Assembly: GCA_965228735.1 (NCBI GenBank)
Contig: OZ245838.1
Coordinates: 4,736,001-4,800,000, forward strand
Source: Planctomycetota bacterium
GTDB taxonomy: Bacteria; Planctomycetota; UBA1135; UBA2386
DNA length: 64,000 nucleotides
Direction: 5' to 3'
In this document: one piece after another, positions 2,956 to 53,814 of the stretch
Layout: the number at the start of each line of letters is the position of its first letter
Numbering within the stretch: the first letter of the stretch is position 1
Position numbers and translations under genes: made by a program
The notes under the pieces: generated by a model
Database searches by the model: none
What the model was told of the DNA's origin: nothing
The model's input: the letters and a program-made list of their open reading frames with translations, nothing else

Positions 2956-2982
2956 AGGGCGTCTCGGCCCTTTACCTAGTTG

Positions 2983-11942: not shown

Positions 11943-12862
11943 GCCTCCACTAGCTTGCGAAGAACACGGCGTGCGAAGTAGTCAATAGCGATGAACACGC
12001 TTGCCTCCATCTGCTGCAGGCGAGCTTTGAGTTCCACTTCGTTGTTGCTTGGTCGGGTCGTTTTCTCGAGATCCTCTAGCCGCTCACTACTGCCAAGGAC
12101 ATTCGCAGCTACGCGGGCATCGACACAAACTACTCCGATCTTGCCGCTGTGGTGCTCGGATTCGTGCCGCAGAGTCCCGGCGAGGACGTAGCTGGCTGGG
12201 CGCGACTCCATGCTGCTACTTAAGACGCCCATGGCATCGCGGTATTCCCTCGAACTCGAGTCTACGCTCCCATCCGCGCTTCGTGGTGCTGATTTCGCCA
12301 TGTTGGTTGAGTCACGCCACGCCATGCCGGCGACGCCGTCGTAACTTCCCTTGTTCGTGTCGATCTCCAACCAGCGCGACTGCGCAACGTCCGATCCCGG
12401 CGCGTTTCGAAGCAGCGGGCGAAGATACGTCTTGCCGTTCTTGGGGTCCTTATAGGTCATCAGAAGAGTGACCCGGAAGTCGCTGTTGTCGTTCAGCAAG
12501 TAGAAGATCCCCTCGAGAAACCGCTGCGCGCGCGTGAGCGCTTCATCCAGCAACTCATCACGTCGGGCGGCCTTGGCGGCCACCGGTATCAGTTCGGCGA
12601 ACGTTAGTGCGCCAAGCAGCCAGGCGGCATGAACCTTGGTGACCGAGAACCAACTGAGAACCGCCGCAGTGGCGAGCCCGATCCTCACGACGGATAGAAG
12701 CCAAAACCAGACCCAGCCGCCTTCGATCTTGAGAGCGATGCGGCCGAGGAAGCGAAGCACTGATCGGAGCCACTCGGTCCCCTTAGGCCAGCTACGACGC
12801 TGACTCTCGGCCCTTTCGAAGATCCGGTTGCAGTAGTCGGCATCATCCCGGACGACCCTCAT
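11933..12862 (-). CDS. 2-TM protein with GAF-like C-terminal domain
   Basis: Two hydrophobic helices, then FRVTLL...GVAGMAW...IGVVCVD, a GAF-like pattern. Confidence 0.6.
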   Translation of the reverse strand: MRVVRDDADYCNRIFERAESQRRSWPKGTEWLRSVLRFLGRIALKIEGGWVWFWLLSVVRIGLATAAVLSWFSVTKVHAAWLLGALTFAELIPVAAKAARRDELLDEALTRAQRFLEGIFYLLNDNSDFRVTLLMTYKDPKNGKTYLRPLLRNAPGSDVAQSRWLEIDTNKGSYDGVAGMAWRDSTNMAKSAPRSADGSVDSSSREYRDAMGVLSSSMESRPASYVLAGTLRHESEHHSGKIGVVCVDARVAANVLGSSERLEDLEKTTRPSNNEVELKARLQQMEASVFIAIDYFARRVLRKLVEACR

Positions 12863-12945: not shown

Positions 12946-13402
12946 TTACGCGCCTGAGAACATTTTCGGCACCGGAAACGTCCCCGGCACCTCCCGGAAC
13001 AGGTCGTCCTCTCCAAGTTCGCCGTAGAGGTCCATCGTCAGCCGGATGTCCGAGTGCCGTAGGACCTGCTGTATGATCTTCGGGTGGACGTTGAGCTCGA
13101 TGAGGATCCGGGCGCAGCTCTTGCGTAGCGCGTGGAAGTCAACGCGTCGGGTCGTAGCACTGCGCTGCGGCGTCAGGCCGGCGTAGGCCGCGTCCTTGCG
13201 CACGATCTCGGCGATCTTCGAGGGCACCCGGAAGACGGGGTCCGTCTCGCGCACCGGGCCAGCGAGGCGCTCCATCTGTAGCTTGCTCCGGCGAGTCCGC
13301 ATGTTGCGCAGGGCTTGGGCGACGAAGTCCTGCAAGGGCACGAGAGCGTCGTCGCCGTTCTTCGTGAACTGGCCGGCCAGGCGCACGCACGGCTTGTCAC
13401 CC
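12946..13402 (-). pseudogene. Duplicated 3' third of the integrase at 15900-17135
   Basis: Peptide KPCVRLAGQFTKNG...FPVP nearly identical to the intact integrase; lacks the N-terminus and first catalytic Arg. Confidence 0.9.
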
Positions 13403-13444
13403 GAGCGCATCTTGCCGCCCTCTGCAAGTCCTGAGAACAAGCTG

Positions 13445-14188
13445 CTACTGCTCCTTGCTTTGGTCCTCTGGTGCAAGTGCCTTCTGCAGATGGTCCAGGA
13501 ATACGCCTTCGAGCTGCCCCGTCGTGACGGGCTCGGGATTCGTGGGTGTTGGTTGCACGTGCGCTTGAAGAAGTGAGATCAGGCGATCGGTGCTTTGGAT
13601 CGGTGCGCCCTCGAGGAAGTCGTGCCAGACCCAGCCGTTCCACAGCTTCAAGCTGTCGGCTGTCGACACGTTCACGTTAATCGTGACCTTTAGCTTCTCC
13701 TCCGCGAAGCGCGCGACGAAGACGTTGAAGCTCACGGCAGATCGACACGCTGCCGGCTCGCTAGTGACGATCGGATCCGGTTGCCGTTCCTCTTTCGTGA
13801 CTCTCCCTGTGGCGCGGACAACTGCGGCGTTCGCCGAGCCCTCGAAACGAACCGGTTCGAGCCATTGCTTCAGGATGTAGCGAGTGCTCGTGACGTTGCC
13901 GAGCTTGACGATCCCATCACCGTCCGAGCCGCTTGTCAGCATCTTCTTTGCGACGACGATGCCCGAGTCCTTCTCAAGAGTCTCGATCGAGATCTGCTGC
14001 TCCGCGAAGAACTGAATGATCGCTTCCCACGCCTTGTCGAACGACACGTTCTCGAACGTCCGTGAGTTTGCAACGGAAGGCACTGCGGGTGGAGTGTAGG
14101 CCTGCGCGAGCTGATGCGCCGTCCGAGTGGCTGTGCAGGCGGTGCATGCGAATGCAGCGAGAAGGGCGATCGTCGTCTTCTTCAGCAT
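13445..14188 (-). CDS. Lipoprotein with a BamC-like helix-grip N-terminal motif
   Basis: MLKKTTIALLAAFAC lipobox; SRTFENVSFDKAWEAIIQFF...IETLEKDSGIV. Confidence 0.7.
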   Translation of the reverse strand: MLKKTTIALLAAFACTACTATRTAHQLAQAYTPPAVPSVANSRTFENVSFDKAWEAIIQFFAEQQISIETLEKDSGIVVAKKMLTSGSDGDGIVKLGNVTSTRYILKQWLEPVRFEGSANAAVVRATGRVTKEERQPDPIVTSEPAACRSAVSFNVFVARFAEEKLKVTINVNVSTADSLKLWNGWVWHDFLEGAPIQSTDRLISLLQAHVQPTPTNPEPVTTGQLEGVFLDHLQKALAPEDQSKEQ

Positions 14189-14448: not shown

Positions 14449-15768
14449 ATGATCAAGAAGAAGGGGTCGCGATGGAATCCCGAGCATCTGGAAGTCGTCA
14501 GAGAGGGGGCTGAAGCGATTCGGCAGTGGCGCAAGAGACACCCGGGTGGGCAGCTTGAACTAGTAGGCGTCAAAGACCTTGCCGGTGCGAAACTAGCGCG
14601 TGCCGATCTGAGTGGTTCGAACCTCGCCGAGGCGAACCTCGTGCGGGCCGATCTGGCTGGAGCAGACCTCAGGAATGCCACACTCGATCGGGCTGATCTC
14701 AGTGACGCTGATTTGACCGCGGCGTTCCTCTCTGGGTCATCTCTCTGCGGCGCTCGTCTTCGGGGCGCCGACATCAGGGGCGCGAACCTTCGGGACGCGG
14801 AGATTAGCCACGCGGACCTGTCCAGCGCTTCGCTTGTCGACGCCGACCTCACAGGCGTGAACCTGGCGAGCTCTGATCTTTCGAACGCGACCCTCAAGCG
14901 GGCAAACCTAAAGAAATCCAATCTGTGCGAAGCGAACTTGTCCGATGCCTCCCTTGAATTCGCATATCTCGGGAGGGCGAACCTCGCGAGTGCAAATCTC
15001 TCTCGGGCGGAGCTGGGGTGGGCGGTACTGACGAACTGCAACTGGGAAGGGGCCGTCGTGGCTCGCCCGCAGATGCGGAATACCATCATCGGCTCAGATC
15101 TGACAGCCGCGGCCGTGCTTGATGTGTTCCATGGTGCGCGTTCCAAGATCACCTCCGATTGTCTGCTCCGGGCCACCCGGCGTCCCTGGCCCATCGAGTT
15201 CCTCCGCGGCGTCGGCCTCTCCAACGCCGAGATCGACTTTGCTCGATCGATGTCCTCTAACGCACTGGACTTCTACTCCGCCTTCATCAGCTACAGCGCC
15301 AAGGGCGAGGACGACCGCTTCGCCGTCAAGCTGCACGATGCGCTGCAGGTCACGGGCGTGCGCTGCTGGCTTGACAAGCACGAGGTTGATCCCGGCGATG
15401 ACGTACTCGAGCGCATCAACGAGGGTGTGCGTCTCTGGGACAAGGTACTGCTGGTTTGTTCTAGACAGTCACTCAAGAGCCACTGGGTCCGGCGCGAAGT
15501 AGAGCGTGCATTTCAGAAAGAGAAGGAGCTCGAGGATCGCCATGGCAAGCGGATTCTCTGCATCATGCCCATCGACCTCGACGGCTACCTCTTCAGCCGT
15601 CACTGCACCTTCAAGTTCACGAGCGACCTTCGCGAGCGCCACGCTGCCAAGTTCCGGGGTTGGCAGGACGACGAGAGCATCTTCGACACGCAACTGGAGC
15701 GGGTCGTCAAGGCACTCCGGTCGGGCGACATGGTGCGGCCGCCGCCGCCTACGTCAAAGCTAGGCTAG
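14449..15768 (+). CDS. Pentapeptide-repeat plus C-terminal TIR domain protein
   Basis: A(D/N)LxX repeats; TIR FISYS...CWLD...SHWVRREV with catalytic Glu. Confidence 0.9.
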   Translation: MIKKKGSRWNPEHLEVVREGAEAIRQWRKRHPGGQLELVGVKDLAGAKLARADLSGSNLAEANLVRADLAGADLRNATLDRADLSDADLTAAFLSGSSLCGARLRGADIRGANLRDAEISHADLSSASLVDADLTGVNLASSDLSNATLKRANLKKSNLCEANLSDASLEFAYLGRANLASANLSRAELGWAVLTNCNWEGAVVARPQMRNTIIGSDLTAAAVLDVFHGARSKITSDCLLRATRRPWPIEFLRGVGLSNAEIDFARSMSSNALDFYSAFISYSAKGEDDRFAVKLHDALQVTGVRCWLDKHEVDPGDDVLERINEGVRLWDKVLLVCSRQSLKSHWVRREVERAFQKEKELEDRHGKRILCIMPIDLDGYLFSRHCTFKFTSDLRERHAAKFRGWQDDESIFDTQLERVVKALRSGDMVRPPPPTSKLG

Positions 15769-15899: not shown

Positions 15900-17135
15900 T
15901 TAGGCGAACAGCGATCTCCCAGGCGTCTCGGTCTCGTTGAACATTCTCGGCACCGGGAACGTCCCCGGCACCTCTCGGAACAGGTCGTCCTCGCCGAGCT
16001 CGCCGTAGAGGTCCATCGTGAGCCGGATGTCCGAGTGCCGCAGGACCTGCTGGATGATCTTCGGGTGGACGTTGAGCTCGATAAGGATCCGCGCGCAGCT
16101 CTTGCGCAGGCCGTGGAAGTCGACACGCCGAGTCGTCGCGCTGCGCTGCGGCGTCAAGCCGGCGTGGGCCGCGTCCTTGCGCACGATTTCGGCGATCTTG
16201 GACGGCACTCGGAACACCGGGTCCGTTTCGCGCACGGGGCCAGCGAGGCGCTCCATCTGTAGCTTGCTCCGGCGAGTCCGCATGTTGCGCAGGGCTTGGG
16301 CGACGAAGTCCTGCAAGGGCACGAGAGCGTCGTCGCCGTTCTTCGTGAACTGGCCGGCCAGGCGCACGCATGGCTTGTTGCCAGTCAGCGTCAGGTCCTC
16401 CCAGTAGATCGACGCGCACTCGTTGGCGCGGAAGCCCGTCGTCAGCGTGAACCAGTAGAGCACTTGCCGGTCGCGGACAGCCTCACCGCCATCGTGGGTT
16501 GGCGTTCCGCCGAGCACGCGCTCTTCCTCGAACCGCGCCCAGGCCGCTTCGACGAGTTGCTCGGCTTCCTCGAAGCGGAAGCCAACGCGCCGGTAGACGC
16601 GGTGCTTGTCGCGTTTCGGAGTGCGCACGCGTAGTTGATGGAACGGGTCGCGGTCCCAGCGTCCCGTGCGTTCAAGCCACCGGCCGAAAGCGCGGAGTGC
16701 CCCGGCGTGGTGGTCGCGCGTCTTGACGCTGCGCTTGGTGCGAATGCGCGCGAGGAAGCGCTCGACGTCCGGCAGCGCGATCGACGGAATCGTTGCGACC
16801 TTTGCGAACGATGCGAACGCCCGGATCTGTCGAATCGACTCGCGCACGTAGCGCGGGTTGCGGTCCTCGGACTCCAGGTTCGCCTTGTAGTCGTCGACCA
16901 GCTTGCCGATCGGCATTGTGCGGAACTCGGCGTAGCGGTCGACCTCGCCGAACTTGGCCTTCTCTACGTCGCGGACCTTTCGTGCCAGGGCGTCACGGGC
17001 GACGCGCAGGTCCTTCGTCTTGGCCGAGCGACGCCGCACGACCCCTGCTTCGTCGGTGTAGACAAAGTGCCAGTAGGGGCTCCCAGGTCGCTTGTACGGG
17101 TTGCCCCGCCAGGCGTTCTCCGGGCTTTTCTTCAC
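15900..17135 (-). CDS. Tyrosine integrase 1
   Basis: Arm-binding N-terminus; catalytic motifs GFRANE, TKNG, HGLR, RHSD...DLY. Confidence 0.95.
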   Translation of the reverse strand: MKKSPENAWRGNPYKRPGSPYWHFVYTDEAGVVRRRSAKTKDLRVARDALARKVRDVEKAKFGEVDRYAEFRTMPIGKLVDDYKANLESEDRNPRYVRESIRQIRAFASFAKVATIPSIALPDVERFLARIRTKRSVKTRDHHAGALRAFGRWLERTGRWDRDPFHQLRVRTPKRDKHRVYRRVGFRFEEAEQLVEAAWARFEEERVLGGTPTHDGGEAVRDRQVLYWFTLTTGFRANECASIYWEDLTLTGNKPCVRLAGQFTKNGDDALVPLQDFVAQALRNMRTRRSKLQMERLAGPVRETDPVFRVPSKIAEIVRKDAAHAGLTPQRSATTRRVDFHGLRKSCARILIELNVHPKIIQQVLRHSDIRLTMDLYGELGEDDLFREVPGTFPVPRMFNETETPGRSLFA

Positions 17136-17413
17136 GCGGCACCCTCGACGAACGCGAGCACTTCCGAGGCGACGAGCAGCGTGCGGCCGCGCAGGCGGCG
17201 TGGCTCGGGAAAGCCGGAATCGGGATCAGCCATCAACCGCCACACACTGCGCTTCGAGACGCCGACCATGAAGGCCGTTTCGGGGACAGACCAGAACCTC
17301 TTCTCCTCCAACTCGCATCGGTCGAAAGGTGCAGGTTTGTGGGTTGATGCCGTCGGCGGCGCATGGATGTCGCTCTCGCGGGCCGGTGGGGCGAGGTCGG
17401 GGTCGTGAGTCAT
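17132..17413 (-). CDS. Excisionase / AlpA-like HTH
   Basis: WSVPETAFMVGVSKRSVWRLM...FPEPRRLRGRTL; coupled to the integrase. Confidence 0.85.
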   Translation of the reverse strand: MTHDPDLAPPARESDIHAPPTASTHKPAPFDRCELEEKRFWSVPETAFMVGVSKRSVWRLMADPDSGFPEPRRLRGRTLLVASEVLAFVEGAA

Positions 17414-17706
17414 CGATGGCCCTCCGTTTCGAGTTCGGGGAGCAGTTGGCCGAGGACCTCGCGATCGATTCCGCGGCGAGTGCTGTCGTCAGCCGGGCGT
17501 ACGACGCTGTGGCGTTCGCCGGATCTCGAGATGCGCTTTGGCCAGGACAGTCCAAGGGCGCCGTCCGATTTCCGCCGCAATGTGACGCCGTCTACGACGA
17601 GGTTGCCGTAGTAGAGCGACAGGTAGCCGAGTAGCCCCCCGCGGACATCGGCGTCCGAGGCACGAACCCAGGTCCTGACACGGATGGTGGGTGACGGAGA
17701 GCTCAT
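17410..17706 (-). CDS. SpoVG-like small nucleic-acid-binding protein
   Basis: LLGYLSLYYGNLVVDGVTLRR...LGLSWP...VVRP pattern; lies in the replication operon. Confidence 0.6.
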   Translation of the reverse strand: MSSPSPTIRVRTWVRASDADVRGGLLGYLSLYYGNLVVDGVTLRRKSDGALGLSWPKRISRSGERHSVVRPADDSTRRGIDREVLGQLLPELETEGHR

Positions 17707-19538
17707 GCGACGCTCCTTTCGGGTGGTCGAACCGACCGGACTGCGACCGGACTCTGAACCGACTTCGAGTCCGGTCCGATCGCGTCCGTCAGAGTCAGGG
17801 CGTTTTTGGGGGCGCCTCCTTGGCGCCCCAACCGACCGGACTGGGTGTCCCCCTTTAGGGGGGAGAGTCTGCTCGTTGGATCGAGCCCTCCGGACGCAGC
17901 ATCGTTGTCCCCGTTGGGGGGCTCCTCAGTCGAACGACCGGACTCGGCGGACGGACCCGTCTGAGTCTGGTCGTCGGTTGGGTCCGGACTGAGAGGAATC
18001 GCGGCATCCGGGTCTCGGATCGCCTGGGGCCAGTCTTCGCCACACCAGCGGCCGACGATGACGGCGTTCTGCTCGGTGTCGATCAGGTCCGGGTAGGCCT
18101 TTGCCATTTCGGCGGCCCCGATGACGAAGGGTGACCCCCGCTTGGCCTGGGTCACGAGGGGGGATCGACCAGCTTGCGCTGCCAGTAGGGTCGAGAACGC
18201 CCGGTCGAACGTGGCCTTGCCGCGACCCACGATCCCGCGGAGTGTGTCCTTGTTCGTCGTCTTGGGGTTCAGCGCGAGCGCCACGGCAATCCGGCGCGTC
18301 GTGTCGACGTCCGCTTCGTCGCGCGCCCTGGCCTTTTCCTTCTCTCTTGCGACCGTCAGATCATCTTGCTCCTCGGTCGTGAGGGCCCGGAGGATGCCAT
18401 GCTCCTCCCGAGCAAGGATGACCCGGTCCTTGAACTCCATGCGCGGCCCGTGGTTGTTCTTGCGGATTCGGAACGCTACCTGGGCATTGGGGAGCGCCGC
18501 GAGATAGCCCTCGACCCGGACGGCGTCGAAGAGTCCTGACGTGCCGCGCGCATCGGGCTCGTCGTCTTCACGTGTGACGTTCGACCGCCGGCTGAGCTTG
18601 TTCGAATGGTGCGCAAACCAAACCGAGATCGGCTCATTTGCTTGCTGTACGAGCGATTCGAGCATTGCGACCCATGCGGTCCCGACCTCGCTCGACAGGT
18701 CGATATTGCCCGAGAGCAGTCGGGACAGAGGGTCGGCAACAACAAGTGCCGGCTGGACGTTCAGAACGCCGGTGGCCCACTCTCCAAAGCTAGAGCTCGT
18801 CATTGGGCTGCCGTTCAAGGTGTTGATGAGGAGCCGGTCTTGGCCGATGCCTGCCACAGAGGCGATGAAGAGCTTCGCCTCGATGTTGCGACGTTCGGCT
18901 GACGACACGTGCGCGAGCAGCTTTCGGGAGATCAGCTGCAAGCGACGGATGATCTGCTCTCGTCGATCCTCGCCGAAGACCAGGAACACTGGCCGACCCG
19001 CAGCGGCCTCGCCGACCGGGAACCTGCCCAGAAAGGGCATGTTGGCGGCAACTGCTACGGCAAGCTGCAGGAAGAACATCGACTTCCCCGCGGCCCCTTG
19101 CCCGACCAGCATTCCGACCTCGTTCATCGGAACGAGCGTGTCGCCATCGCATGGGTCGGCTACAGCCTGACCGCGGCGGGTCGGGTAGTGCAGCAGGGCT
19201 GGAGTTGGCGGAACGAGCTGGTCAAGCGTCCCGGGAGCGAGTGGTGCGCATGTCGTGCCCAAGCATGGAAACCCGACCGGGTGACTGTCGCTGGACTGCT
19301 TGGACTGAGCGTCATCGTTCTGACCACGCGAAGCCGCCTCGGTCAGGTCGTCGAAGACGTTGAGTTCTCGCCGGAGCACTTCCGACGTGTTCACCCCGCA
19401 CTCGGCGACCAACGTCGTGTCATGCTGTTCGGCGATGACTCGAAGGTGGCCTACAGGCACCACCAGCCGCGGTGCGCCGCACAGTTTTGCCATGCCGCTC
19501 AGGAACGCGCGCCCGATGTAGCTCCGGTCGTTGCTCAC
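17703..19538 (-). CDS. RepA-like AAA_25 (SF4-related) helicase
   Basis: Walker A GQGAAGKS, Walker B LVVADPL, HHSNK, ARGTSGL. Confidence 0.88.
   Translation of the reverse strand: MSNDRSYIGRAFLSGMAKLCGAPRLVVPVGHLRVIAEQHDTTLVAECGVNTSEVLRRELNVFDDLTEAASRGQNDDAQSKQSSDSHPVGFPCLGTTCAPLAPGTLDQLVPPTPALLHYPTRRGQAVADPCDGDTLVPMNEVGMLVGQGAAGKSMFFLQLAVAVAANMPFLGRFPVGEAAAGRPVFLVFGEDRREQIIRRLQLISRKLLAHVSSAERRNIEAKLFIASVAGIGQDRLLINTLNGSPMTSSSFGEWATGVLNVQPALVVADPLSRLLSGNIDLSSEVGTAWVAMLESLVQQANEPISVWFAHHSNKLSRRSNVTREDDEPDARGTSGLFDAVRVEGYLAALPNAQVAFRIRKNNHGPRMEFKDRVILAREEHGILRALTTEEQDDLTVAREKEKARARDEADVDTTRRIAVALALNPKTTNKDTLRGIVGRGKATFDRAFSTLLAAQAGRSPLVTQAKRGSPFVIGAAEMAKAYPDLIDTEQNAVIVGRWCGEDWPQAIRDPDAAIPLSPDPTDDQTQTGPSAESGRSTEEPPNGDNDAASGGLDPTSRLSPLKGDTQSGRLGRQGGAPKNALTLTDAIGPDSKSVQSPVAVRSVRPPERSVA
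17734..17990. repeat. Iteron-like GACCGGACT repeats around a CCCCCTTTAGGGGG near-palindrome (putative ori)
   Basis: Direct copies at 17734, 17745, 17834, 17936; inverted copy at 17768; one-mismatch copies at 17964 and 17982; near-palindrome at 17848-17864. Confidence 0.65.
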
Positions 19539-20710
19539 GAGAGTAGCTCCGCGAGGTGACGATCGTCGGAGCGGTAGATACAGCGGGCTTGGTCGGGGTC
19601 TCGCCTTTCAGGAACGATCGACATGTTGCTCCACTCCGCGACCAGGTGTTCGCCGCACTTCGAGCCGTAGAGCAGATCCGAAACTCCCCACAGGACGTTT
19701 CGCCACGCTTCGTAGCTCACCTCCGGTGGGACCCAGGCGAGGAGTTCTGCGGCCTCGGCGAAGTTCGCGCAATCGCCGCAAGTGCAACGCGCCTTGAACT
19801 GATACGGGCGCCGACTTGCCGATGCCCGCGCGTCGACCTTGGCGCCGTGCTCGGACCCTGCTGCGTTGTTGCGCGTGCGCGCCGCCTTCGCTTGACGGTG
19901 ACGCTTCCGAAGTCCGCTTGAGGTCGGTTGCGTGGCTCGTGACTCGAGAAGCGCTTGCAGCAGGGTGTCTGGCGGCGGGCGGATCCCTTCGACGCGGCCG
20001 CCGACGAGCTTGGGCAAGCCGTCGACGCACGTCCCGTCCGTGTCGAAGCGAATCTCCGGATATGGTTCCAAGCCGACGATCTCGCCCTCTGGATGATCGT
20101 CGCTGATCTCGATTCGTGGTGCTCCGCGAACCCACTCTCGGTGAGGGCAGACGCCGTTCGTCTCAATCGTGACGCCGCCGCTTTTCGGGCCTGCTCCGCG
20201 AACGTCGACACCAAGAAGCCAGCCGTTGCGGTTGCCGATCTTCGCCGCGAGCTCTGACTCGACCGCGTAGTGGAAGTGGACGCCCCTCTTGCTGGTTGAG
20301 AGTAGGTCGGTGCCGAAGCTGCCACCCATGAAACCGCTGAAGCTCGCCAGGCCGTCCCGGAACACGCGCTTGCTGATGCGACTCCCGTCTGATTCCTCGA
20401 CGACGACGAACTTCCAGCTGCGGTCGCAGTCGACCGTGAGCAGTCGGCTCGGCTTGGTGTGAATGCAGACATCCGCTCCGCGCGGGTCAGAGTCTGGCCC
20501 GAGCCAGTAGTCGCGAACTTCGTCCGGGTCGGTCGTGGGGCCCACGATTCGGCCGGCCTGCACCTCCTCTTCTTTCCAGGCGACCGTAGGGTGCTTGCCG
20601 CACGCGACCCCCTGCTTGTCAGGGTCGATTCGGTGATGGGATGGGGTAACGGCCCAGCCGATCTTGGCGTAGTGGAGTGCAACGAGGTGGGCAATGTCGC
20701 GGTCCTTCAC
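19535..20710 (-). CDS. Bifunctional primase-polymerase with PriCT-like C-terminus
   Basis: CGKHP, LLTVDCD, STSKRGVHFHY, GVDVRG; C-terminal SYEAWRNVLWGV...EWS. Confidence 0.85.
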   Translation of the reverse strand: MKDRDIAHLVALHYAKIGWAVTPSHHRIDPDKQGVACGKHPTVAWKEEEVQAGRIVGPTTDPDEVRDYWLGPDSDPRGADVCIHTKPSRLLTVDCDRSWKFVVVEESDGSRISKRVFRDGLASFSGFMGGSFGTDLLSTSKRGVHFHYAVESELAAKIGNRNGWLLGVDVRGAGPKSGGVTIETNGVCPHREWVRGAPRIEISDDHPEGEIVGLEPYPEIRFDTDGTCVDGLPKLVGGRVEGIRPPPDTLLQALLESRATQPTSSGLRKRHRQAKAARTRNNAAGSEHGAKVDARASASRRPYQFKARCTCGDCANFAEAAELLAWVPPEVSYEAWRNVLWGVSDLLYGSKCGEHLVAEWSNMSIVPERRDPDQARCIYRSDDRHLAELLS

Positions 20711-21012
20711 TGGGCCCCCTTCTCGTGCTTCGAGGTCAACGCGGCGAGCCAGCGGCGCACCTCCTCGACCGTGGTCGCCCAGGATCCTGCGCTGCGGAAC
20801 CGGCGAATGCGCAGCCCGTCAACGCCTCGAAGAGTCCATCGCCAGCACGTCGCGGGAGTGACTGGTTGACCGTCGGGGCGCGGAGCCACGAAGCGGGCGA
20901 TACGGGGGATGCGGATGATCGTCTCGCCGATCCACCATTCTCTGGTGTTACGCGATGCGACTTCCTGTGGCGTCGTCATGTGGCAGACGATGCCGTGTGA
21001 ATCGGACAGCAA
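20707..21012 (-). CDS. DUF1580-like HTH protein
   Basis: PATCWRWTLRGVDGLRI...WATTVEEVRRWL, typical of this Planctomycete-enriched family. Confidence 0.75.
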   Translation of the reverse strand: MLSDSHGIVCHMTTPQEVASRNTREWWIGETIIRIPRIARFVAPRPDGQPVTPATCWRWTLRGVDGLRIRRFRSAGSWATTVEEVRRWLAALTSKHEKGAQ

Positions 21013-21030
21013 ATGCCCGACCCTTCTTTG

Positions 21031-21606
21031 TCACTTCTTCCGTCGCTCGCCGGTCGGAGTCCAGAACCAGTGCTTCCCGACGAGGTCGACGAGGTGCCTC
21101 TCCCGAAGCCGGGTTAGGACGCGGTATAGGGACCGGTCGTCGGGGTTGAGACCGCGCAACTTGAAGTCCTCGGCCTTGAGCCCGCGATCTCCGGCTTCCA
21201 CCAGGCGATCGAGCGCCCGCAAGTGCTTCTCTTCCAACGGCGCGACGTGGTTCTTCGGCAGCCTAGGGCGTCCTCGTTTCTTCGGTGCGTGCTTCGCTTC
21301 GGTCGTGGCCAGTTTGGCGATGGCCTCGCCGAGCTTCCCAGCAAGGGTGACCTTGCTTGCTTCGGCGGTGTTCTTCTCCAACCGCACATCGACGAGCGCG
21401 AGCAGCAGCGTCAGCTCCGACTCGGTGAACGCTCCGCCGCGGACCAACTCGATGGCTCGCGTAACGGCATCGCTGGGTTCGGGGGGCTTGGCCACTGGTC
21501 TTCGACTGGTGAGCAGCTCCGTTCGGGAGCGACTGCCGTCCGCCGGCTGTCGAGTCGCGGACGAAGTGAGTGTAGCGTCGACGTGAGCGATGCTCCGGGT
21601 AGGCAC
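21031..21606 (-). CDS. Winged-helix DNA-binding protein
   Basis: KRGRPR hook plus SLYRVLTRLRERHLVD...WFWTPTG. Start uncertain. Confidence 0.6.
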   Translation of the reverse strand: MPTRSIAHVDATLTSSATRQPADGSRSRTELLTSRRPVAKPPEPSDAVTRAIELVRGGAFTESELTLLLALVDVRLEKNTAEASKVTLAGKLGEAIAKLATTEAKHAPKKRGRPRLPKNHVAPLEEKHLRALDRLVEAGDRGLKAEDFKLRGLNPDDRSLYRVLTRLRERHLVDLVGKHWFWTPTGERRKK

Positions 21607-22479
21607 CTATCGGCCGACTGCGACACGCAACCTTCTGCTATCAACGGACGTGTAGACCGTCGTCGACATGATCGAGCGGTGGTTCAATGCCGCCTGGACG
21701 ACTCGCAAGTCGCTCGTGCGGCTCAGAATCCTCTCGGCAAAGCTGTGTCGGAACGCATGGGCGCTCCTGCCAGTGATCTGGGCCTCGGCAAGCCACCCGG
21801 CGATCCGGCGTTGTGCGTGACGCATCGATACGCGGCGGTCGCCAGCCAAGAACACCGGACCGTCCTGACGTCCACGTAGGAAGCGCTGGATCTTCCGGGC
21901 GACCGCCTTCGGCAGCAGCGCCGTCGCTGGCCGATTACCCTTCGCGGAGCGCAGCGTGACCTCGCCGTGGGCGAAGTCGATGTCGCCGACATCGAGCGCG
22001 ATTGCGCTGCCGATTCGGATCCCACTCGCAAGGAGAAGTCGGATGAGCATCGCATCACGCTCGGCCTGCGGGCCTGGTGCGTTGGCGAGGACTGCGAGCA
22101 GGCGATCCTGCTCGTCCTGGCGCAAGGCTCGTGGCGGTGGGGGAGAGCACCTTGCTCGCTTCAGGAGCCGTGCGGCGTTCATCGGTGCGAGGCCGGACTC
22201 GTGCGCCCACTTGAAGAAGCAGCGCAGCGAGGTGCGCTGCGCGTTCGCCGACGTCGCCTTCTTCGTTCCGCCGCGCGCGCTGAGCTGTGCGGTGTCCGAG
22301 GCGAAGAATTCAGCGACGACCGCGGGCGTCATGGCCTCGATGTCGGTTGGTCGGTCAGTCGACGTGAGCCAGGCGATCAGGCTCGCTACGTGTCGCTGAT
22401 ACTGCTTCCGGGTGTGCTCTGATCGGCCGTCGGCTTGGAGTTGAACTTGGAAGTGCCCGAGGGCGTCTTGGAGGTGCAT
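21607..22479 (-). CDS. XerC/D-like tyrosine recombinase (no arm-binding domain)
   Basis: GRSEHT SAM-like start; GIRIGS, AKGN, HAFRHSFA, LNHRSIMSTTVY. Confidence 0.92.
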   Translation of the reverse strand: MHLQDALGHFQVQLQADGRSEHTRKQYQRHVASLIAWLTSTDRPTDIEAMTPAVVAEFFASDTAQLSARGGTKKATSANAQRTSLRCFFKWAHESGLAPMNAARLLKRARCSPPPPRALRQDEQDRLLAVLANAPGPQAERDAMLIRLLLASGIRIGSAIALDVGDIDFAHGEVTLRSAKGNRPATALLPKAVARKIQRFLRGRQDGPVFLAGDRRVSMRHAQRRIAGWLAEAQITGRSAHAFRHSFAERILSRTSDLRVVQAALNHRSIMSTTVYTSVDSRRLRVAVGR

Positions 22480-22611
22480 GCCGCCATGAGGCCATCGTCC
22501 GGAACCTGCGTTCAAGTCGCATTCCGCCGCCCCTGTCGCTGCAACATCCAGTCCAGGGCCGACGTCACATTCGGGAGGAAATCGGGCTTCTTCGGTAGCT
22601 GAAGGTCGCCG

Positions 22612-22950
22612 TCAGAAGTCGTGCCCTTGCTTGTCGAGAAGGTGGCCGAAACCGTGGTGCATCTCCAGAGCGCCGAGTGCCTGCAGGCACCAGACGATGT
22701 TTCTATCTCGTGGGTGACCTTGAAACCCTCCCTTGCCATCGAGTCCGTCGAAGTGGGCTTCGAGTGAGTCGAGCTTCTCGTGGATGTAACTCTTCAGCCC
22801 TGCCTCGACGCGAAGGTCGTGGATTCGTTCTTTCGCTTTCTCAACAAGAAAGCCGGTGTCGACGGCGTCGACTCCCGACAGATCGTCCACAATCCCCCGC
22901 AAGGCATCGAGTGCTTTCCTGATCCCCGCATTGTTTGGGCGGTCGCTCAT
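22612..22950 (-). CDS. Hypothetical helical protein downstream of the TIR-TM gene
   Basis: AGGA RBS, ATG start, protein-like composition. Confidence 0.6.
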   Translation of the reverse strand: MSDRPNNAGIRKALDALRGIVDDLSGVDAVDTGFLVEKAKERIHDLRVEAGLKSYIHEKLDSLEAHFDGLDGKGGFQGHPRDRNIVWCLQALGALEMHHGFGHLLDKQGHDF

Positions 22951-23010
22951 TCCTAGATGCTATTCCATCTGGTTGTGCGCAGAAACGCTGATGGAAGGGT
23001 TGGACACTAG

Positions 23011-24363
23011 CTAGCCGCCGGTCCACGAGCAGTCGACGACGTGGTTCTCGCCGGCTTCGAGCTCCGACAGTTTCATCCTTGGCGGCAGCTGACACTCCGT
23101 GAAGCTGCAGCCGCGAAACCAGGACGGTGGGATATCGCCTCGAAAAACGCAGGTCTCGAACACCACGTTAGTGAAGCTGACCTCGGTGTTGGGAGACGTA
23201 AAGTCGAGCCGTTGGTCTGCGTCCGGCGGCGGTTCGTCGACGACCAAGCGCTCAATCACGCATCGGTCGAGCGCGGTGACTCGGCCGGCGCCGACAACAT
23301 GCGGGCTAGACTTCTCGGCAGAGCGGAAGCGCACCTGGGAGAATTCGCTGACGCCGAAGTACGTCCCGTAGAACATCGAGTTCTCGAAGTCGACTGCGAG
23401 CATCTTCGTGCCAGATACCTGTCCGCCCCAGAAGCGGCACTCTTCGAACCGACAAGAGGACACTGTGAGATTCTCGCCGGGGCCCCAAGCTACGCCGCTG
23501 AACGATACATCGTCGAACCGCACGTCGTGCAACCTGCCGCTTGCGAATGTTGTTTCGACGAGCGACCCGCCGGAGAAGTCCGAGGCTGCCCAAGTAAGGT
23601 CCTGCAGATACTGGCGCCCCGACGCATTGCGCGGTCCAAGGAGAGCATCAGCCGCAATGCTTGCGTTCAGTCGCTGCAACGGTGTGTGCTCGGAGTTCTC
23701 CCGGATCAACAGAAGCCGGGAAACCATCACTTCGTCCTCGCGGTGCTCGGATGCCAGATGGTTGATGACGTCGCGACGGACGATGGTCTCTGAGCGAAGG
23801 ATTCGATCCTTCGTCGCCTCACGGTCGTTCGCGACCGTCCACATGTTCACGCGTGCCACCACGTCGGACGCGAGCCAGGTCGCGAGGGCGATCAACGCGA
23901 CGACGATCCCGATACTCGCCGCGATCCGTTTTCGTCGTCGAGCCTTCGCGAACGATAACCGTTGCCGCACTTTGACCACCGCCAGGCGCAGCTCGTCCGG
24001 CTCGTTCACGGTCTCGTAGTTGAGCTCTCGCATTATCGAGTCGAGCGGTCGCGGCCAGACGACGGGCTCGGTTCCGAGGCGCACGGGCGTCATCGCCTTG
24101 CCGATGGCGTTGGCGTGGTAGATCTCCGCTTGGCACCATTCACTGCACACCGAGCGCGGCGACACCACGGGCACTACGGCATCGCAGTCCCGTAGCTCCG
24201 CGCGGATGCGGTTCGTGAAGTCTTCTCCGATCAGCGTCTCGTGCGTGTCGTGGTAGGCGTGGAAGCCGCTCGCTTTGAGCTCCTGGTAGAGGACGTCCAC
24301 GTCTTTGGCGTCTTCTCTTGCGTAGCTGATGAATACGGATGCCTTCCGAATCGGGTTGCGCAT
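23011..24363 (-). CDS. TIR - single TM - pentapeptide-repeat protein
   Basis: VFISYARED...SEWCQAEI TIR; RRRKR then IAASIGIVVALIALATWLA TM; C-terminal xFxxx repeats. Confidence 0.88.
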   Translation of the reverse strand: MRNPIRKASVFISYAREDAKDVDVLYQELKASGFHAYHDTHETLIGEDFTNRIRAELRDCDAVVPVVSPRSVCSEWCQAEIYHANAIGKAMTPVRLGTEPVVWPRPLDSIMRELNYETVNEPDELRLAVVKVRQRLSFAKARRRKRIAASIGIVVALIALATWLASDVVARVNMWTVANDREATKDRILRSETIVRRDVINHLASEHREDEVMVSRLLLIRENSEHTPLQRLNASIAADALLGPRNASGRQYLQDLTWAASDFSGGSLVETTFASGRLHDVRFDDVSFSGVAWGPGENLTVSSCRFEECRFWGGQVSGTKMLAVDFENSMFYGTYFGVSEFSQVRFRSAEKSSPHVVGAGRVTALDRCVIERLVVDEPPPDADQRLDFTSPNTEVSFTNVVFETCVFRGDIPPSWFRGCSFTECQLPPRMKLSELEAGENHVVDCSWTGG

Positions 24364-24674
24364 GTCGAACCGGCCTTGGTTGGGCGGAGGTGCTCTCCGG
24401 CCCCATTACACCCGGCGCGGGCTTGGAGGTCAGCGGAATCCCGCGCGCAAGTCTCGGCCGCAGAACGAAGCATGAGGGGTTGAGCACCTTGACGTTCCGC
24501 TGAGACCTCATCTTGCGCTATCGGGCGTGCAGGTCGCTTGATGATGGGGCCGCCTCGAAGAACTAGTTCTCACCGCGCGTGGCTCGTCGTCGGAAAGCCG
24601 GTTGCTCCAACGAGAGGCCGCGGCTCTCCTCTTGGCATTGACAAGCTGCGGCAAAAGGACCGACACTTCCCCCG

Positions 24675-25079
24675 ATGGCTGAGAGGAAAACAGAGCACTT
24701 GCAGATGATCCAGGGGGTCGTGAGCCGGCTGTCCACGAACTCATTCTTGCTCAAGGGCTGGTCTGTGGTCCTCGTCTCAGCGCTCTTCGGACTCTCCACG
24801 CAAGTCGAGAACCGCACGCCTTTCCTAGCACTCGCCTACTTCCCTGCACTCGCGTTTTGGATCCTCGATGCCTACTTCCTTTCACAAGAACGCCGTTTCC
24901 GCGCGCTTTTCGACCATGTGCGTATGCAGTTGGAGGACAAGATCGACTTCTCGATGAGCACCGTTGCGCACGTTAGTCCGCGTTGCTCGTGGCCTGCCGC
25001 CTTCTTGTCACGAACGGTGCTCATCTTCCACGGGGTGGTCGTCGCTTCCATCTTTCTCGTGATGTTGCTCTTGGGGTAG
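24675..25079 (+). CDS. Small 3-TM protein, putative effector of the adjacent TIR
   Basis: HLQMIQGVVSRLSTNSFLLKGW...FWILDAYFLSQERRFR, a membrane family I recall beside DUF1863 TIR genes. Confidence 0.75.
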   Translation: MAERKTEHLQMIQGVVSRLSTNSFLLKGWSVVLVSALFGLSTQVENRTPFLALAYFPALAFWILDAYFLSQERRFRALFDHVRMQLEDKIDFSMSTVAHVSPRCSWPAAFLSRTVLIFHGVVVASIFLVMLLLG

Positions 25080-25086
25080 TGCATCG

Positions 25087-25578
25087 ATGGCCCGCATCAT
25101 CTTTCCCAGTTTCCACTACGAACGGGATGCGTGGCGCGCTGGCGTCGTCCGCAATTCGTGGCGGACCCAGGGTTTCAAGGCTTCAGGCTTCCGTGACGGA
25201 GCTCGATGGGAGCAGGTAGAGCGCCACGGCAAGGAAGCGGTGGAGCGCTGGATTGAGGATCAGCTCAAAGGGGCTTCTGTGACCATCGTCCTCATCGGTG
25301 CGCAGACTGCAGAGCGCGAGTGGGTCATGCACGAGATCCGGCGCAGCTGCGCGCTCCGGATGGGGCTCGTTGGTATTCGCATCCACGGCATCAGAAACAA
25401 TCACCGGCTCGTCGACGTCGCTGGCGCCAACCCTTTCGATTCTCTCTGGTATGATTCGCCTGGCGGTGTTCGTCAGTACTTGTCAAGCATCTACAGCACC
25501 TACGACTACGTGGCGGACAACGGCTACCAGAATCTTGGTGCGTGGATCGAAGCAGCGGCGCGTGCGGCAGGTCGATAG
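25087..25578 (+). CDS. thsB: Thoeris ThsB-like TIR (MTH538/DUF1863)
   Basis: FPSFHYERDAWRAGVVRNSW...VTIVLIGAQTAEREWVMHEI...YDYVADNGYQNLGAWIE. Confidence 0.85.
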   Translation: MARIIFPSFHYERDAWRAGVVRNSWRTQGFKASGFRDGARWEQVERHGKEAVERWIEDQLKGASVTIVLIGAQTAEREWVMHEIRRSCALRMGLVGIRIHGIRNNHRLVDVAGANPFDSLWYDSPGGVRQYLSSIYSTYDYVADNGYQNLGAWIEAAARAAGR

Positions 25579-25671
25579 CTGCTTAGCCCGCGTAGAGTTT
25601 GCGGTAGGCCCCAGCGCTGTTGGGCGATGCCTGCTCATTTCTCCACGGCTTCGCCGCAAGCACGATCTAGG

Positions 25672-26010
25672 CTAGCCCGATAGACACGCTAGTGAGGGCG
25701 GCCGAACTGCTTGGTCCGTAATTGCTTGCCAAGCATTACTAGCCTTCGCAGGTATCACGGTCTCGGGCACGCCTGCACGGATCGCCCAGGTCCGTTCCCG
25801 ATGGACCCAAGTAGATAGCCGAGAGTTCACGGAGTCGACTACGAGAACACGCGTCGCGTTTCGAATGGCTGAGAACACTTGTTTCTCGAGGCCCTGGGTC
25901 AGGTCGAGCGAAACGTAGTCGATCCAAGTGGGAAAGCCGTGACGGCGAAGAAAGCCCTCAAGGCTTCTAGCGAGAACGGCGTCACGCCATGAGTAGCTGA
26001 CGAAGATCAT
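25672..26010 (-). CDS. Stand-alone TIR_2 domain protein (112 aa)
   Basis: MIFVSYSWRD...WIDY...STWVHRE. The ATG at 26010 overlaps the upstream TGA (ATGA). Confidence 0.8.
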   Translation of the reverse strand: MIFVSYSWRDAVLARSLEGFLRRHGFPTWIDYVSLDLTQGLEKQVFSAIRNATRVLVVDSVNSRLSTWVHRERTWAIRAGVPETVIPAKASNAWQAITDQAVRPPSLACLSG

Positions 26011-26582
26011 TCGGAGGGATCGTCTTGATGTGAATCCCGGGCAACGAGAACACGCCCCGCTCCATCGGCTTCCCCCTCGATGATCGCATTCGGAACGTAG
26101 CTTATGGCTTCGGCAACGTTCCAGTCGCCTCTCGGAGTCAGGAACTTGGTCGAGACCTGCACGACGCAGCCCCCTCCCCGCACTTGCATCGCCTTCGTGC
26201 TCCTTGCCCATGTTGGGCCAACTGCCTTGAAGAGCAACTGGAAATTGTCCGGGCGCCCTACTGTCTCGACGGGTCCCTCTACGTCGCTGGTTTCCCTAAC
26301 GGCTTTGAGGACTCCGCCCTTTAGCGCGTCGATGAACTGCCGCGGGTCGATTCCAGCGTATTCACTAGGTGCGTAGAAGACGAAGGGGCGGAAGAAGAGG
26401 CAGGTGAAGAAGCCACCGGCAACGAGCACTGGGAAGGCGGTCACGAATATGACGAGACTCAGTTGGACGTTGCCTTCAGACTGAGTAGCGGCGATTCCGA
26501 CAACGGTCTCAGTCAGCCCAACAAACGCCGCAATCACCCAAAGGGGAGTGAGTCTCTTTTCTATCGGCTTGTCGTCAGGCAT
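26007..26582 (-). CDS. 2-TM protein with a C-terminal beta domain (STKAM/GCVVQV/VAEA motifs)
   Basis: GGAG RBS before ATG 26582; TPLWVIAAF...FPVLV...FYAPSEY 2-TM region; coupled to the TIR gene. Confidence 0.8.
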   Translation of the reverse strand: MPDDKPIEKRLTPLWVIAAFVGLTETVVGIAATQSEGNVQLSLVIFVTAFPVLVAGGFFTCLFFRPFVFYAPSEYAGIDPRQFIDALKGGVLKAVRETSDVEGPVETVGRPDNFQLLFKAVGPTWARSTKAMQVRGGGCVVQVSTKFLTPRGDWNVAEAISYVPNAIIEGEADGAGRVLVARDSHQDDPSE

Positions 26583-26941
26583 CTCTAGTCTCCGTATCTG
26601 GGCGGGTGTTCCTCGGGGCTTCCCTTCCTCGGTTGCGCCGAAACCCGTCAACGAATGTATTTGAGTCATGGCGCATGCCAAAGGAAATGCGCCCCTCACG
26701 ACCCGGCCGGAACGCCCGCCGTCTCGGTGGGCCGTCACCGTTTCTAAACGGTGAAAAACGGTGGGTAGCGGTCAGCCACGCCGCTGGATTCTCGCGCAAC
26801 AGACCTACGCAGTGTCAGTTACGCCCGTCTCCGAGCCGGGCGGCTTGTGGGAAAACGGTGCCTGCCCTAAGCTCCCGTCGCCAGCGCCCTTCCGTCCAAG
26901 CAAACCTCCAAGCGGGCGATACCCCGATCGAGGTCTGCTCA

Positions 26942-27418
26942 GTGGCCAAGCCAGCGACAACGCGAGACAGTCAGGGCCGGTTCTCCCGCGGCAACGCCGG
27001 AGGACCAGGCCGGCCCAAGGGCGGCGGCACGCGCGAACTGCAGCAAGCGATCACCGAGGCCGTTGGCCCGGAGCACATGCAGGCGATCATGCGCAAGGCG
27101 CTGATCCTCGCGCTCAACGGCAACCTCTCGGCGATGAAGTTCGTCGCCGACCGGGCCTGCGGTAAGCCAACCGACGCGCCGGCAGCAGCCGATCCGATCG
27201 ACATCGAACTTCCACGCCTGCGGAATACAGCCGATTGCGACCGAGCGCTCGACGTCGTGGTCCAGGGAGTCTGCAGCGGCACCGTCGATCGGGACACGGC
27301 GCGCCTGTTCACAGACCTGATCCAGGCCCGCGTGAAGACGATCGAAGCCAAGGAGCTCGAGCAGCGGATCGCCGAGTTGGAGCAGACCCTGTCCGCTACC
27401 GGTCACCAACCGCGGTGA
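26942..27418 (+). CDS. DUF5681 / terminase-small-subunit-like protein
   Basis: RDSQGRFSRGNAGGPGRPKG N-terminal motif; C-terminal ELEQRIAELE coiled coil; GAGG before the GTG. Confidence 0.6.
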   Translation: MAKPATTRDSQGRFSRGNAGGPGRPKGGGTRELQQAITEAVGPEHMQAIMRKALILALNGNLSAMKFVADRACGKPTDAPAAADPIDIELPRLRNTADCDRALDVVVQGVCSGTVDRDTARLFTDLIQARVKTIEAKELEQRIAELEQTLSATGHQPR

Positions 27419-34650: not shown

Positions 34651-34943
34651 TGAGCACCGCTGTTGTGCGCCGCCACCGTTGCCGACTCCGGCGAGGCTCG
34701 AAACAAACGGTGCTGCCATAAGCGAGTTGAAGAGCGCTACCGACTACCCTGCTATCGTCTGAGTTGCGATTATGAATACCTCGCAAGCTGCTAGACCAGA
34801 AATAGCCGCGATCAGCTCGTTGTGTTTCCTCAGTCCTTGCCTGGTGGGATTCGCGTTATTTGCCAGTGGGCGTTTTCGCGAGTCGAACGGGGAATGATCG
34901 CTCCGTTATTGAAGCCGAGCCACTCAGGTCTGGGGATGAACGA

Positions 34944-36307
34944 GGGAGTGTGCGATGAACGGTGTATTCGCGTGACGGCTGGTGGGATCCTCTGACCCGT
35001 AGGGAGCCCACCGATGACCCCGAAGAAGAATGACCGCCACCGAATCCCGGACGAGCTGATCGACCAGCTCCTCGCCAACTACGAGAAGCCAGAAGACCTG
35101 ACAGGAAAGGACGGCATCCTCAAGGAGCTGACGGCCCGGCTGCTCGGCCGAGCCCTCGAAGGCGAGATGACCGAGCACCTCGGCTACGAGAAGCACGCAC
35201 CGCGTGCCGAGGGCACGAGCAACGCGCGCAACGGATCACGCAGCAAGACGATCAAGGTCGAGGACGGCGAGCTCGAGATCGAGGTGCCGCGCGATCGCGA
35301 CAGCACGTTCGAGCCCGAGATCGTCAAGAAGCGCCAGAGACGCTTCGCGGGCTTCGACGAGAAGATCCTGGCGCTCTACGCCCGCGGCATGACCGTCCGC
35401 GACATCCAGGGCCACCTGGAGGAGCTGTACGGCGTCGAGGTCTCGCCATCGCTGATCTCGAGCGCCACGTCGGCGGTCCACGAAGACGTCCTGGCCTGGC
35501 AGAGCCGGCCGCTCGAGCCGGTCTACCCGATCGTCTTCCTCGATGCGCTCGTCGTGAAGGTGCGCGACGAAAGCGTCGTCCGAAACAAGTCGGTTTACCT
35601 GGCGATCGGCGTCACGCTCGACGGCCGCCGCGAAGTCCTCGGGATCTGGATCGAGCAGACTGAGGGCGCGAAGTTCTGGCTGAAGGTCATGAACGAGCTG
35701 AAGACGCGCGGCGTCCAGGACATCCTGATTGCGTGCTGCGATGGCCTGAAGGGCTTCCCGGACGCGATCGAGCATGTGTTCCCGCAGGCCACCGTGCAGA
35801 CCTGCATCGTGCACATGATCCGGAACTCGCTGCGCTTCGTCAGCTACAAGGATCGCAAGGCCGTCGCCAAGGACCTCAAGCCGATCTACACGGCCGCCAA
35901 CCGCGAAGCGGCCGAGGCAGCGCTGGATGCCTTCGACAAGAAGTGGGGCCGCCGCTACGAGATGATCACCTCGTCCTGGCGAGCGAACTGGGAGCGTGTC
36001 GTGCCGTTCCTCGACTTCCCGCCCGAGGTCCGGCGCGTGATCTACACGACCAACCAGATCGAGGCGCTCAACTCGAGCCTGCGCAAGCTGCTGCAGTACC
36101 GCGGCCACTTCCCGGACGACAAGTCCGTCACCAAGCTGCTCTACCTCGCGCTGCGTCGCTTCGAGAAGAAGTGGACGCGTGCGCTCTGGAATTGGAGCGC
36201 CGTCCTCGGGCAGCTCGCTATCTTCTTTCAAGGCAGGATACCTGCCCTGTAACCGTGACCTCACTCCGCCAGCTGGTCGCCGTTTACACCGTTAGCTGCA
36301 CACTCCC
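34944..36307 (+). mobile_element. IS256-family insertion sequence
   Basis: Terminal IRs GGGAGTGTGC..AACGGTGTA; 8-bp target duplication ATGAACGA at 34936-34943 and 36308-36315. Confidence 0.95.
35014..36252 (+). CDS. IS256 (Mutator-family) DDE transposase
   Basis: VFLDAL, CDGLKG, QTCIVH, IYTTNQIE motifs. Confidence 0.97.
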   Translation: MTPKKNDRHRIPDELIDQLLANYEKPEDLTGKDGILKELTARLLGRALEGEMTEHLGYEKHAPRAEGTSNARNGSRSKTIKVEDGELEIEVPRDRDSTFEPEIVKKRQRRFAGFDEKILALYARGMTVRDIQGHLEELYGVEVSPSLISSATSAVHEDVLAWQSRPLEPVYPIVFLDALVVKVRDESVVRNKSVYLAIGVTLDGRREVLGIWIEQTEGAKFWLKVMNELKTRGVQDILIACCDGLKGFPDAIEHVFPQATVQTCIVHMIRNSLRFVSYKDRKAVAKDLKPIYTAANREAAEAALDAFDKKWGRRYEMITSSWRANWERVVPFLDFPPEVRRVIYTTNQIEALNSSLRKLLQYRGHFPDDKSVTKLLYLALRRFEKKWTRALWNWSAVLGQLAIFFQGRIPAL

Positions 36308-39715: not shown

Positions 39716-40177
39716 GACTCTCCTAGGTTGTGACGACTCCGCGACGAACGCGGACACCTCCCACGGTCGGAGAGGCTACACCGACCTGGGTCGCTGGGGG
39801 AACCCCCTCGCCAGGACGAGGTCGCCTACGTGCCGACGAGCCGCTGAGCTGCGATCCATGCCCAGCCGACGATCGCGGCCGCAGCCCAGAATCCGAGTCC
39901 GTAGAGAAGCCCGTCGATCAGGCTGAGGCGGGCTCTGTAGCCCACAGGTTGCTTCGTGTGTTGCATCGTTGCTCCCAGCATCCAGTGCAGTGGGAGGGGG
40001 ATGCGCTGGCAGGGCTGCGGGGGCAGGTAAGTGTGCCGAGGGGAACTAGGGAAAAAGGGAAGAAGGAGAGTCGAGTTTTACGTCCCTCGAGAGGACAACC
40101 CCGGCACGTGTGTGCCCTCCAGCTAGGGCAGGCCGTCTCAGCGCGCAAGCCCCCGCCGCGCGCCGGAGCGCCGAGGC

Positions 40178-41365: not shown

Positions 41366-41367
41366 TG

Positions 41368-53778: not shown

Positions 53779-53814
53779 CGGTCTCGTCTGCCGGCTCCCT
53801 CGCGAACCACGTCA

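Follow-up and report, generated by a model that had tools for sequence, protein, structure and literature searches.

What do three TIR genes and two membrane-protein genes, packed into one bacterial cluster, encode? The question is raised by positions 22612–26582 of a 64,000-nucleotide (nt) stretch of Planctomycetota bacterium DNA (assembly GCA_965228735.1, contig OZ245838.1, positions 4,736,001–4,800,000; the whole stretch is referred to herein as the window), for which the initial annotation, made from the letters alone, proposed either separate two-gene systems or cross-wired ones. Our analysis resolves the cluster into three separable units in a mobile island of low guanine-plus-cytosine (GC) content: a TIR protein with one transmembrane (TM) segment and pentapeptide repeats, a three-TM (3TM) protein paired with a ThsB-type TIR, and a two-TM protein ("2TM-X") paired with a minimal TIR, herein the mini-TIR (Table 1). 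Separate two-gene systems are supported and cross-wiring is not needed; the last of these pairs travels alone in most genomes. We focus on that pair, in which a Lockin-like domain is joined to membrane helices and encoded with a TIR, and which is likely an undescribed variant of TIR signalling immunity.

The 2TM-Lockin protein

The X of 2TM-X, whose identity the initial annotation had missed, is by sequence and model comparison a Lockin domain. The characterised Lockins are all sponges, i.e., soluble phage proteins of ~100 amino acids (aa) that sequester 3' cyclic ADP-ribose (3'cADPR) (PDB 9P8L; Tal et al. 2025, bioRxiv 10.1101/2025.07.12.664507; here and below, cited sources are represented by their accessible text). 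Residues 107–170 matched 9P8L in phmmer with an E value of 5e-9, the sole PDB match at E<=10. An AlphaFold2 model of the 2TM-Lockin protein (predicted local distance difference test, 83.6) returned 9P8L as its top three Foldseek matches, and structure comparison with 9P8L gave a Z score of 9.7 and a root-mean-square deviation of 2.8 over 79 aligned residues (~38% identity to LockinA), with the next row at 5.9; in ESM Atlas, nothing exceeded 0.78.

In LockinA, 3'cADPR is contacted at the protomer interfaces of a hexamer by K35, K45, S46, T47, K48 and residue 59 (Tal et al. 2025, bioRxiv 10.1101/2025.07.12.664507). The fold is the same in our protein and all six contact positions are kept, with one lysine replaced by arginine: K119, R127, S128, T129, K130 and Q142 correspond to LockinA K35, K45, S46, T47, K48 and Q59, a mapping that takes from the KSTK motif an offset of one between the 9P8L chain and the published numbering. 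Across 51 relatives, five of the six contacts are invariant (51/51), and position 127 is lysine in 28 and arginine in 23. The loop before W125 is two residues shorter than in Lockin, and prediction of a four-copy complex of the domain reached a median of 0.26 against a mark of 0.42.

The pair of 2TM-Lockin protein and TIR matched no model in PADLOC, NCBIfam or older Pfam, nor did the Lockin effector itself in Pfam, PADLOC and NCBIfam, libraries that hold no ThsF–ThsL models; by precomputed assignment, Pfam PF26760 has already been built on these proteins. The 2TM module belongs to a large unnamed modular family (P0070–P0206), fused to many unannotated C-terminal domains; the best 150 matches fall into >100 clusters when grouped at 50% identity. 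When 109 proteins joining this module to other C-termini were scanned with Pfam and PADLOC, none of the partners was a known nucleotide sensor; TPR appeared in 5/109 and the remainder were single matches, so toxicity of the module itself stays a prediction. Comparison of the 2TM segment with the 3TM protein or DUF2270 by hhalign gave nothing significant, and a promoter scan found two 9-of-12 sites, neither decisive. A 305-aa protein (P0071) combines one TM segment with two tandem Lockin-like domains.

The mini-TIR and its coupling to Lockin

Twelve positions do not vary across 23 aligned copies of the mini-TIR, among them Y6, W8, D10, D31, W68 and the WxxxE glutamate E72. Conservation stops near residue 88, some copies are just 88–92 aa long, and there is no extra domain. 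The model contains four strands, with the fifth absent, and matches the TIRs of SARM1, AbTir and SPARTA. In those enzymes, the region that the mini-TIR lacks helps form a two-protomer active site; if this role holds, the assembly and product of the mini-TIR may be unusual. A fusion of the two genes, or a frameshift in the window, was ruled out: the genes are separate in every locus, and the sequence is identical in three public runs.

Coupling was scored in 119 loci, comprising every one of the 39 found on genome contigs plus the best 80 of 422 metagenome loci, together with a viral sample of the best 80 of 429 IMG/VR loci. Of 25 2TM-Lockin loci, 4 were cut by contig ends; at the 21 assessable ones (>=250 nt downstream), the next gene was invariably a mini-TIR, as it was across the origin in L007 (22/22), using a profile built from the sampled loci themselves that also detects the other TIR_2 domains of the window. 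Clustering of these 22 loci leaves 14 groups at 90% identity and 9 groups at 70%, with Latescibacterota, Binatia and Acetobacteraceae among the named hosts; among 401 genomes of the window's own phylum, the full 2TM-Lockin protein was found solely in that of the window. One further locus (L059), cut at the N-terminus and excluded from the counts, also carries a mini-TIR.

A second architecture, in which Lockin is joined to a different, single TM anchor (1TM-Lockin), was present at ten loci, five of them reclassed by eye (hydropathy 1.65–1.76, against the script's cut of 1.8). A mini-TIR is adjacent at 7/10, in Loktanella, cyanobacteria, Actinomycetes and Chloroflexaceae. At L031, the 1TM-Lockin is accompanied by a ThsB-type TIR in convergent orientation and by another TIR_2 gene. 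At L026 (5256–6315), a Nuc_deoxyri_tr2 gene in place of a TIR lies upstream of the 1TM-Lockin, and L074 (1–799) has a similar fragment by eye; a shared unknown gene of ~160 aa follows in both, and 1TM-Lockin with Nuc_deoxyri_tr2 may represent a further signal-enzyme pairing.

In the controls, a mini-TIR-type match was found at 0/40 assessable loci of soluble Lockins and at 0/24 of 2TM proteins without Lockin, one of the latter (L060) sitting behind a ThsB + 3TM pair. Every one of the best 80 viral loci encodes a soluble Lockin, with 0/80 in TM form and 0/80 having a TIR on the coding strand, and a search for a phage-borne TM sponge in 72,556 plasmids and 50,697 phage records returned partial matches only. 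A quick tree of 120 domains placed 36/37 TM-fused or TIR-linked rows on one side (Shimodaira–Hasegawa-like approximate likelihood ratio test, 100), the exception being a long branch; with its root unplaced, the tree gives no direction of transfer. A signal-handling domain common to host and virus has a precedent in the ring nuclease AcrIII-1/Crn2. Certain viral Lockins are fused to other phage domains (L082/L178, 680–1804; L102–L105, L174, L185, L205, L224), one of which resembles Acb4, and on the viral contig L196 (991–1722) a soluble Lockin stands behind an N-terminal domain resembling Nuc_deoxyri_tr2 by eye.

Given the conserved nucleotide pocket, the invariant catalytic glutamate and the strict coupling of the genes, the 2TM-Lockin protein and mini-TIR probably form a signal-receptor pair.

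Relation to known systems

Panoptoo is reportedly named as a guard system alongside Panoptes and PanDA. As in our pair, Panoptes and PanDA combine a minimal nucleotide synthase with a TM protein bearing a β-rich ligand domain, and sometimes adjoin a signalling system that they possibly guard (PMC12657218, PMC13640721). They differ in their parts, with an mCpol or DAC synthase and an S-2TMβ or CARF receptor in place of a TIR and a Lockin-like domain. Their linkage to the guarded system is also stronger, Panoptes lying beside the cyclic-oligonucleotide-based antiphage signalling system (CBASS) in about half of cases (PMC12657218). In our pair, constitutive synthesis and repression are predictions.

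In Thoeris types II and V–VII, too, a stand-alone TIR with a catalytic glutamate neighbours a TM effector for which a nucleotide pocket between protomers is predicted (Yirmiya et al. 2025, bioRxiv 10.64898/2025.12.03.692087); unlike theirs, our TIR is a truncated TIR_2-type domain. By the names in the main text of that preprint, in which type IX is undescribed, the Thoeris effectors are SIR2-SLOG, Macro, caspase, DUF2270, DUF6650, SLATT, CMP hydrolase, ion channel and hydrolase, and Lockin is none of these; the word "Lockin" has 0 occurrences in its accessible text. The 29 putative effectors of the same study (Fig. 1C, Table S1) may nevertheless include 2TM-Lockin under another label. Whereas Lockin was described as a soluble, stand-alone phage sponge, the present form is TM-fused, bacterial, TIR-coupled and set apart in the quick tree; "transmembrane" has 0 occurrences in the accessible text of the Lockin preprint (Tal et al. 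2025, bioRxiv 10.1101/2025.07.12.664507). The literature surveyed, with figures, bioRxiv supplements and subscription papers outside its scope, yielded neither a Lockin that is TM-fused or belongs to bacterial immunity nor a guard built on a TIR.

Function of the pair

Our preferred reading, to which we give a probability of roughly 0.4, is that the pair is a Panoptes-like guard. The mini-TIR would continuously convert nicotinamide adenine dinucleotide (NAD+) to a cADPR-type nucleotide, and the Lockin domain would bind this nucleotide and keep the membrane helices shut; removal of the nucleotide by a phage sponge would then release membrane damage. Such a guard might protect the neighbouring 3TM + ThsB pair. 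Predicted for the guard itself are catalysis, the identity of the ligand, assembly into hexamers and toxicity; the least certain prediction is its polarity, i.e., repression rather than activation. Tentatively, this would be the first TIR-based guard: a decoy signal of cADPR type, made by a minimal TIR, would be read by a Lockin-type membrane effector, and host receptor and viral sponge would share an ancestor.

Consistent with a guard, the mini-TIR is minimal, free of any sensor domain and operonic with a TM effector, as are the synthases of Panoptes and PanDA, whose hallmark is a minimal make-up without a sensor. Ten mini-TIRs were found among 168 genomes of the phylum Latescibacterota, of which 3 retain an intact effector and 7 have lost it at four different junctions, with no effector-only case. 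The orphans (L035–L038, L271–L273) represent at least 4 distinct effector deletions with the TIR frames intact; elsewhere, a broken effector lies beside an intact TIR at L009, L028 and L051, and both genes are broken at L039. That the effector is lost first is a hint in favour of guard polarity. Thoeris-type genes lie beside the pair in the window, L046, L027 and L031, and the L046 island holds the PDC-M50 system (see below), three ThsB genes and ThsA near the pair. The L027 locus (Loktanella sp. D2R18, 941–6602) is a TIR island of ThcB4, a HET-domain gene, ThsB and caspase, followed by a 1TM-Lockin and mini-TIR.

A number of observations weigh against a guard. The asymmetry of loss is weak: for seven events, gene length alone gives p ~0.055, three of the seven are possibly errors of assembly, and ordinary Thoeris, too, would be compatible with losing a costly effector. 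The orphan TIRs remain intact (ratio of nonsynonymous to synonymous polymorphism, 0–0.37), whereas a partnerless constitutive NAD+ consumer might be expected to decay. Thoeris-type neighbours occur at just 3/19 scanned loci, with no defence neighbour at 14/19, and strong ThsB matches show a weak enrichment, in 7/16 genomes against 3/18 controls, with four of the seven from one lineage. The (possibly incomplete) genomes of L026 and L031 have a 1TM-Lockin and no member of the mini-TIR clade. With the usual fifth strand absent, catalysis by the mini-TIR is not assured. Finally, Thoeris TIRs with an identified product made that product after infection (Yirmiya et al. 2025, bioRxiv 10.64898/2025.12.03.692087).

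A close rival, which we regard as possible, is a new phage-activated Thoeris type, in which the mini-TIR would make a cADPR-type signal on infection and its binding by the Lockin domain would open the membrane helices. Lockin homology and the coupling data fit it equally, the pair mostly stands alone, and types V–VII offer TM effectors with predicted, positively charged inter-protomer pockets and a signal made on infection (bioRxiv 10.64898/2025.12.03.692087). Three 1TM-Lockins beside another TIR-like gene (ThsB-type TIR in L031; Nuc_deoxyri_tr2 in L026 and, by eye, L074) also suit this arrangement, whereas the mini-TIR leaves little room for a phage sensor, and the absence of any effector-only remnant among the 168 genomes argues for a guard.

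It is unlikely that the TIR is instead a toxic or signalling arm whose product the TM-Lockin buffers as a tethered sponge, be it antitoxin, threshold device or anti-defence cargo of a mobile element. This would fit the sponge function of all characterised Lockins, the unchanged pocket and the place of the window copy within a low-GC mobile island; yet a toxic TIR should not permit the seven genomes with an intact TIR and no Lockin gene, no TM form occurs among the best 80 viral loci, the majority of copies lie among housekeeping genes, and two unrelated membrane anchors are joined to one domain clade. Improbable, too, is a truncated TIR that acts not as a free signal synthase but as a subunit in direct contact with the membrane protein, or a pair that signals outside immunity. 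Translational coupling through an ATGA overlap, a TIR core that stops after the fourth strand and the 14/19 loci free of defence neighbours would agree with this, and the invariance of E72, W68, Y6, W8, D10 and D31 in 23/23 TIRs and of the partner's nucleotide pocket argues the other way.

The Panoptes paper speculates on guards for the Thoeris signal pool (PMC12657218); if the guard reading is true, our pair would be such a Thoeris-guarding, Panoptes-like system, and either polarity would constitute a new type of TIR system. The Lockin-like domain is a new candidate receptor for TIR-made signals and connects a phage anti-Thoeris sponge with a family of bacterial immune proteins, a connection relevant to the origins of sponges. 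As a two-gene unit of <1 kb with a copy in Loktanella (L027), the pair offers a direct test of predicted Thoeris-pool guards.

Other units of the cluster

Layout, strands and membrane segments, as initially annotated, were borne out for all five open reading frames (ORFs) of the cluster, and each of its three TIRs has the claimed catalytic glutamate in a WxxxE motif (E80, E83 and E72). Both genes of the 3TM + ThsB pair match PADLOC PDC-M50 from end to end and as tandem neighbours, with no difference found, and by these matches the pair is a separate, already catalogued candidate system. The possibility that all pairs map onto catalogued systems, raised in the initial annotation, thus holds for this pair and fails for 2TM-X + TIR. 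Relatives of the 3TM protein are present in 102 plasmid records, with a TIR gene adjacent in 5/5 inspected. In type V Thoeris, the effector has three TM helices (Yirmiya et al. 2025, bioRxiv 10.64898/2025.12.03.692087), and the 3TM + ThsB pair may be type V (ThsF/DUF2270); hhalign of shallow alignments of 3TM and DUF2270 gave a probability of 0.4% (E 0.15), there was no Pfam match to 3TM, and the sole lead in ESM Atlas was 8xMP at 0.85. PDC-M50 and the 2TM-Lockin + mini-TIR pair recur next to each other in L046; islands shared by both pairs are real, and a shared signal is not implied.

The TIR–TM–pentapeptide protein has three full-length relatives (37–40% identity) that keep the TIR glutamate and the entire architecture, with none among 200 other genomes of the phylum. 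It is rare, and its single TM segment suggests a candidate receptor-like arrangement in which the TIR would lie inside the cell and the repeats would face outwards.

Table 1. Positions and assignments of cluster and neighbouring features in the window
Feature	Position	Strand	Remarks
Fourth TIR, pentapeptide-repeat–TIR protein	14449-15768	+	WxxxE glutamate E350; opposite side of integrase-primase module
Integrase	15900-17135	-	Mobile module adjoining TIR cluster
AAA_25	17703-19538	-	Mobile module
Prim-Pol	19535-20710	-	Mobile module
Second integrase	21607-22515	-	Mobile module (span 15900..22515)
112-aa ORF	22612-22950	-	No family matched; opens the initially annotated interval; no link to cluster seen
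TIR–single TM–pentapeptide-repeat protein, 450 aa	23011-24363	-	TIR_2 E 3e-19; hydrophobic segment 147-165; E80
3TM protein, 134 aa	24675-25079	+	Three hydrophobic segments; PADLOC PDC-M50A E 2e-44
ThsB-type TIR	25087-25578	+	ThsB_TIR E 2e-22; PADLOC ThsB E 8e-57, PDC-M50B E 3e-53; E83
Mini-TIR, 112 aa	25672-26010	-	TIR_2 E 1e-13; E72; ATGA stop/start overlap with 2TM-Lockin gene
2TM-Lockin protein (2TM-X), 191 aa	26007-26582	-	TM segments 14-32 and 41-59; C-terminal Lockin-like domain
Lockin-like domain, residues ~98-182	26037-26291	-	Alignment to 9P8L

Island and genome context

The TIR cluster lies in an island of ~100 kb with 62–64% GC, against 69% for the genome, and with repeated integrase copies. 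Positions 22400–27000 were recovered unchanged, on a single contig, in three public runs that are possibly the source of the window DNA. The genome has 3 TIR_2 matches, every one inside the window, and the fourth TIR reported at 14449 was confirmed. Also upheld were the claimed absences of a SIR2-SLOG effector, with zero SIR2_2 matches in the genome (93% complete), and of a caspase effector in the window: tblastn with ThsA, caspase, ThcB4 and HET queries matched nothing, and the single caspase-family gene lies ~4 Mb from the cluster.

Elsewhere in the window, a 309-aa ORF, which a PADLOC 2TM effector model matches weakly (E 0.03), and a 169-aa partner, without clear family, occupy 11433–12862 (-), and 12946–13476 is a partial duplicate of the 15900 integrase. 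A Mutator-family insertion sequence at 34941–36307 has ~10 near-identical genome copies. At 37415–38530 (-), a gene for an 8xMP (PF24838) octameric membrane protein (E 4e-15) is followed by a 204-aa ORF with a hydrophobic start and without family. An AAA_13 ATPase and then a HEPN (RiboL-PSP) gene form a defence-like pair at 53104–56124 (-), and an Mrr-like endonuclease lies with an RNase_H-like/superfamily 1 helicase gene at 59136–63683 (-). Two RHS-repeat proteins are encoded at 2980–9270 and 41146–47757 (+), and the sequences upstream of them are duplicated (1282–2996 versus 39670–41381, at 94%).

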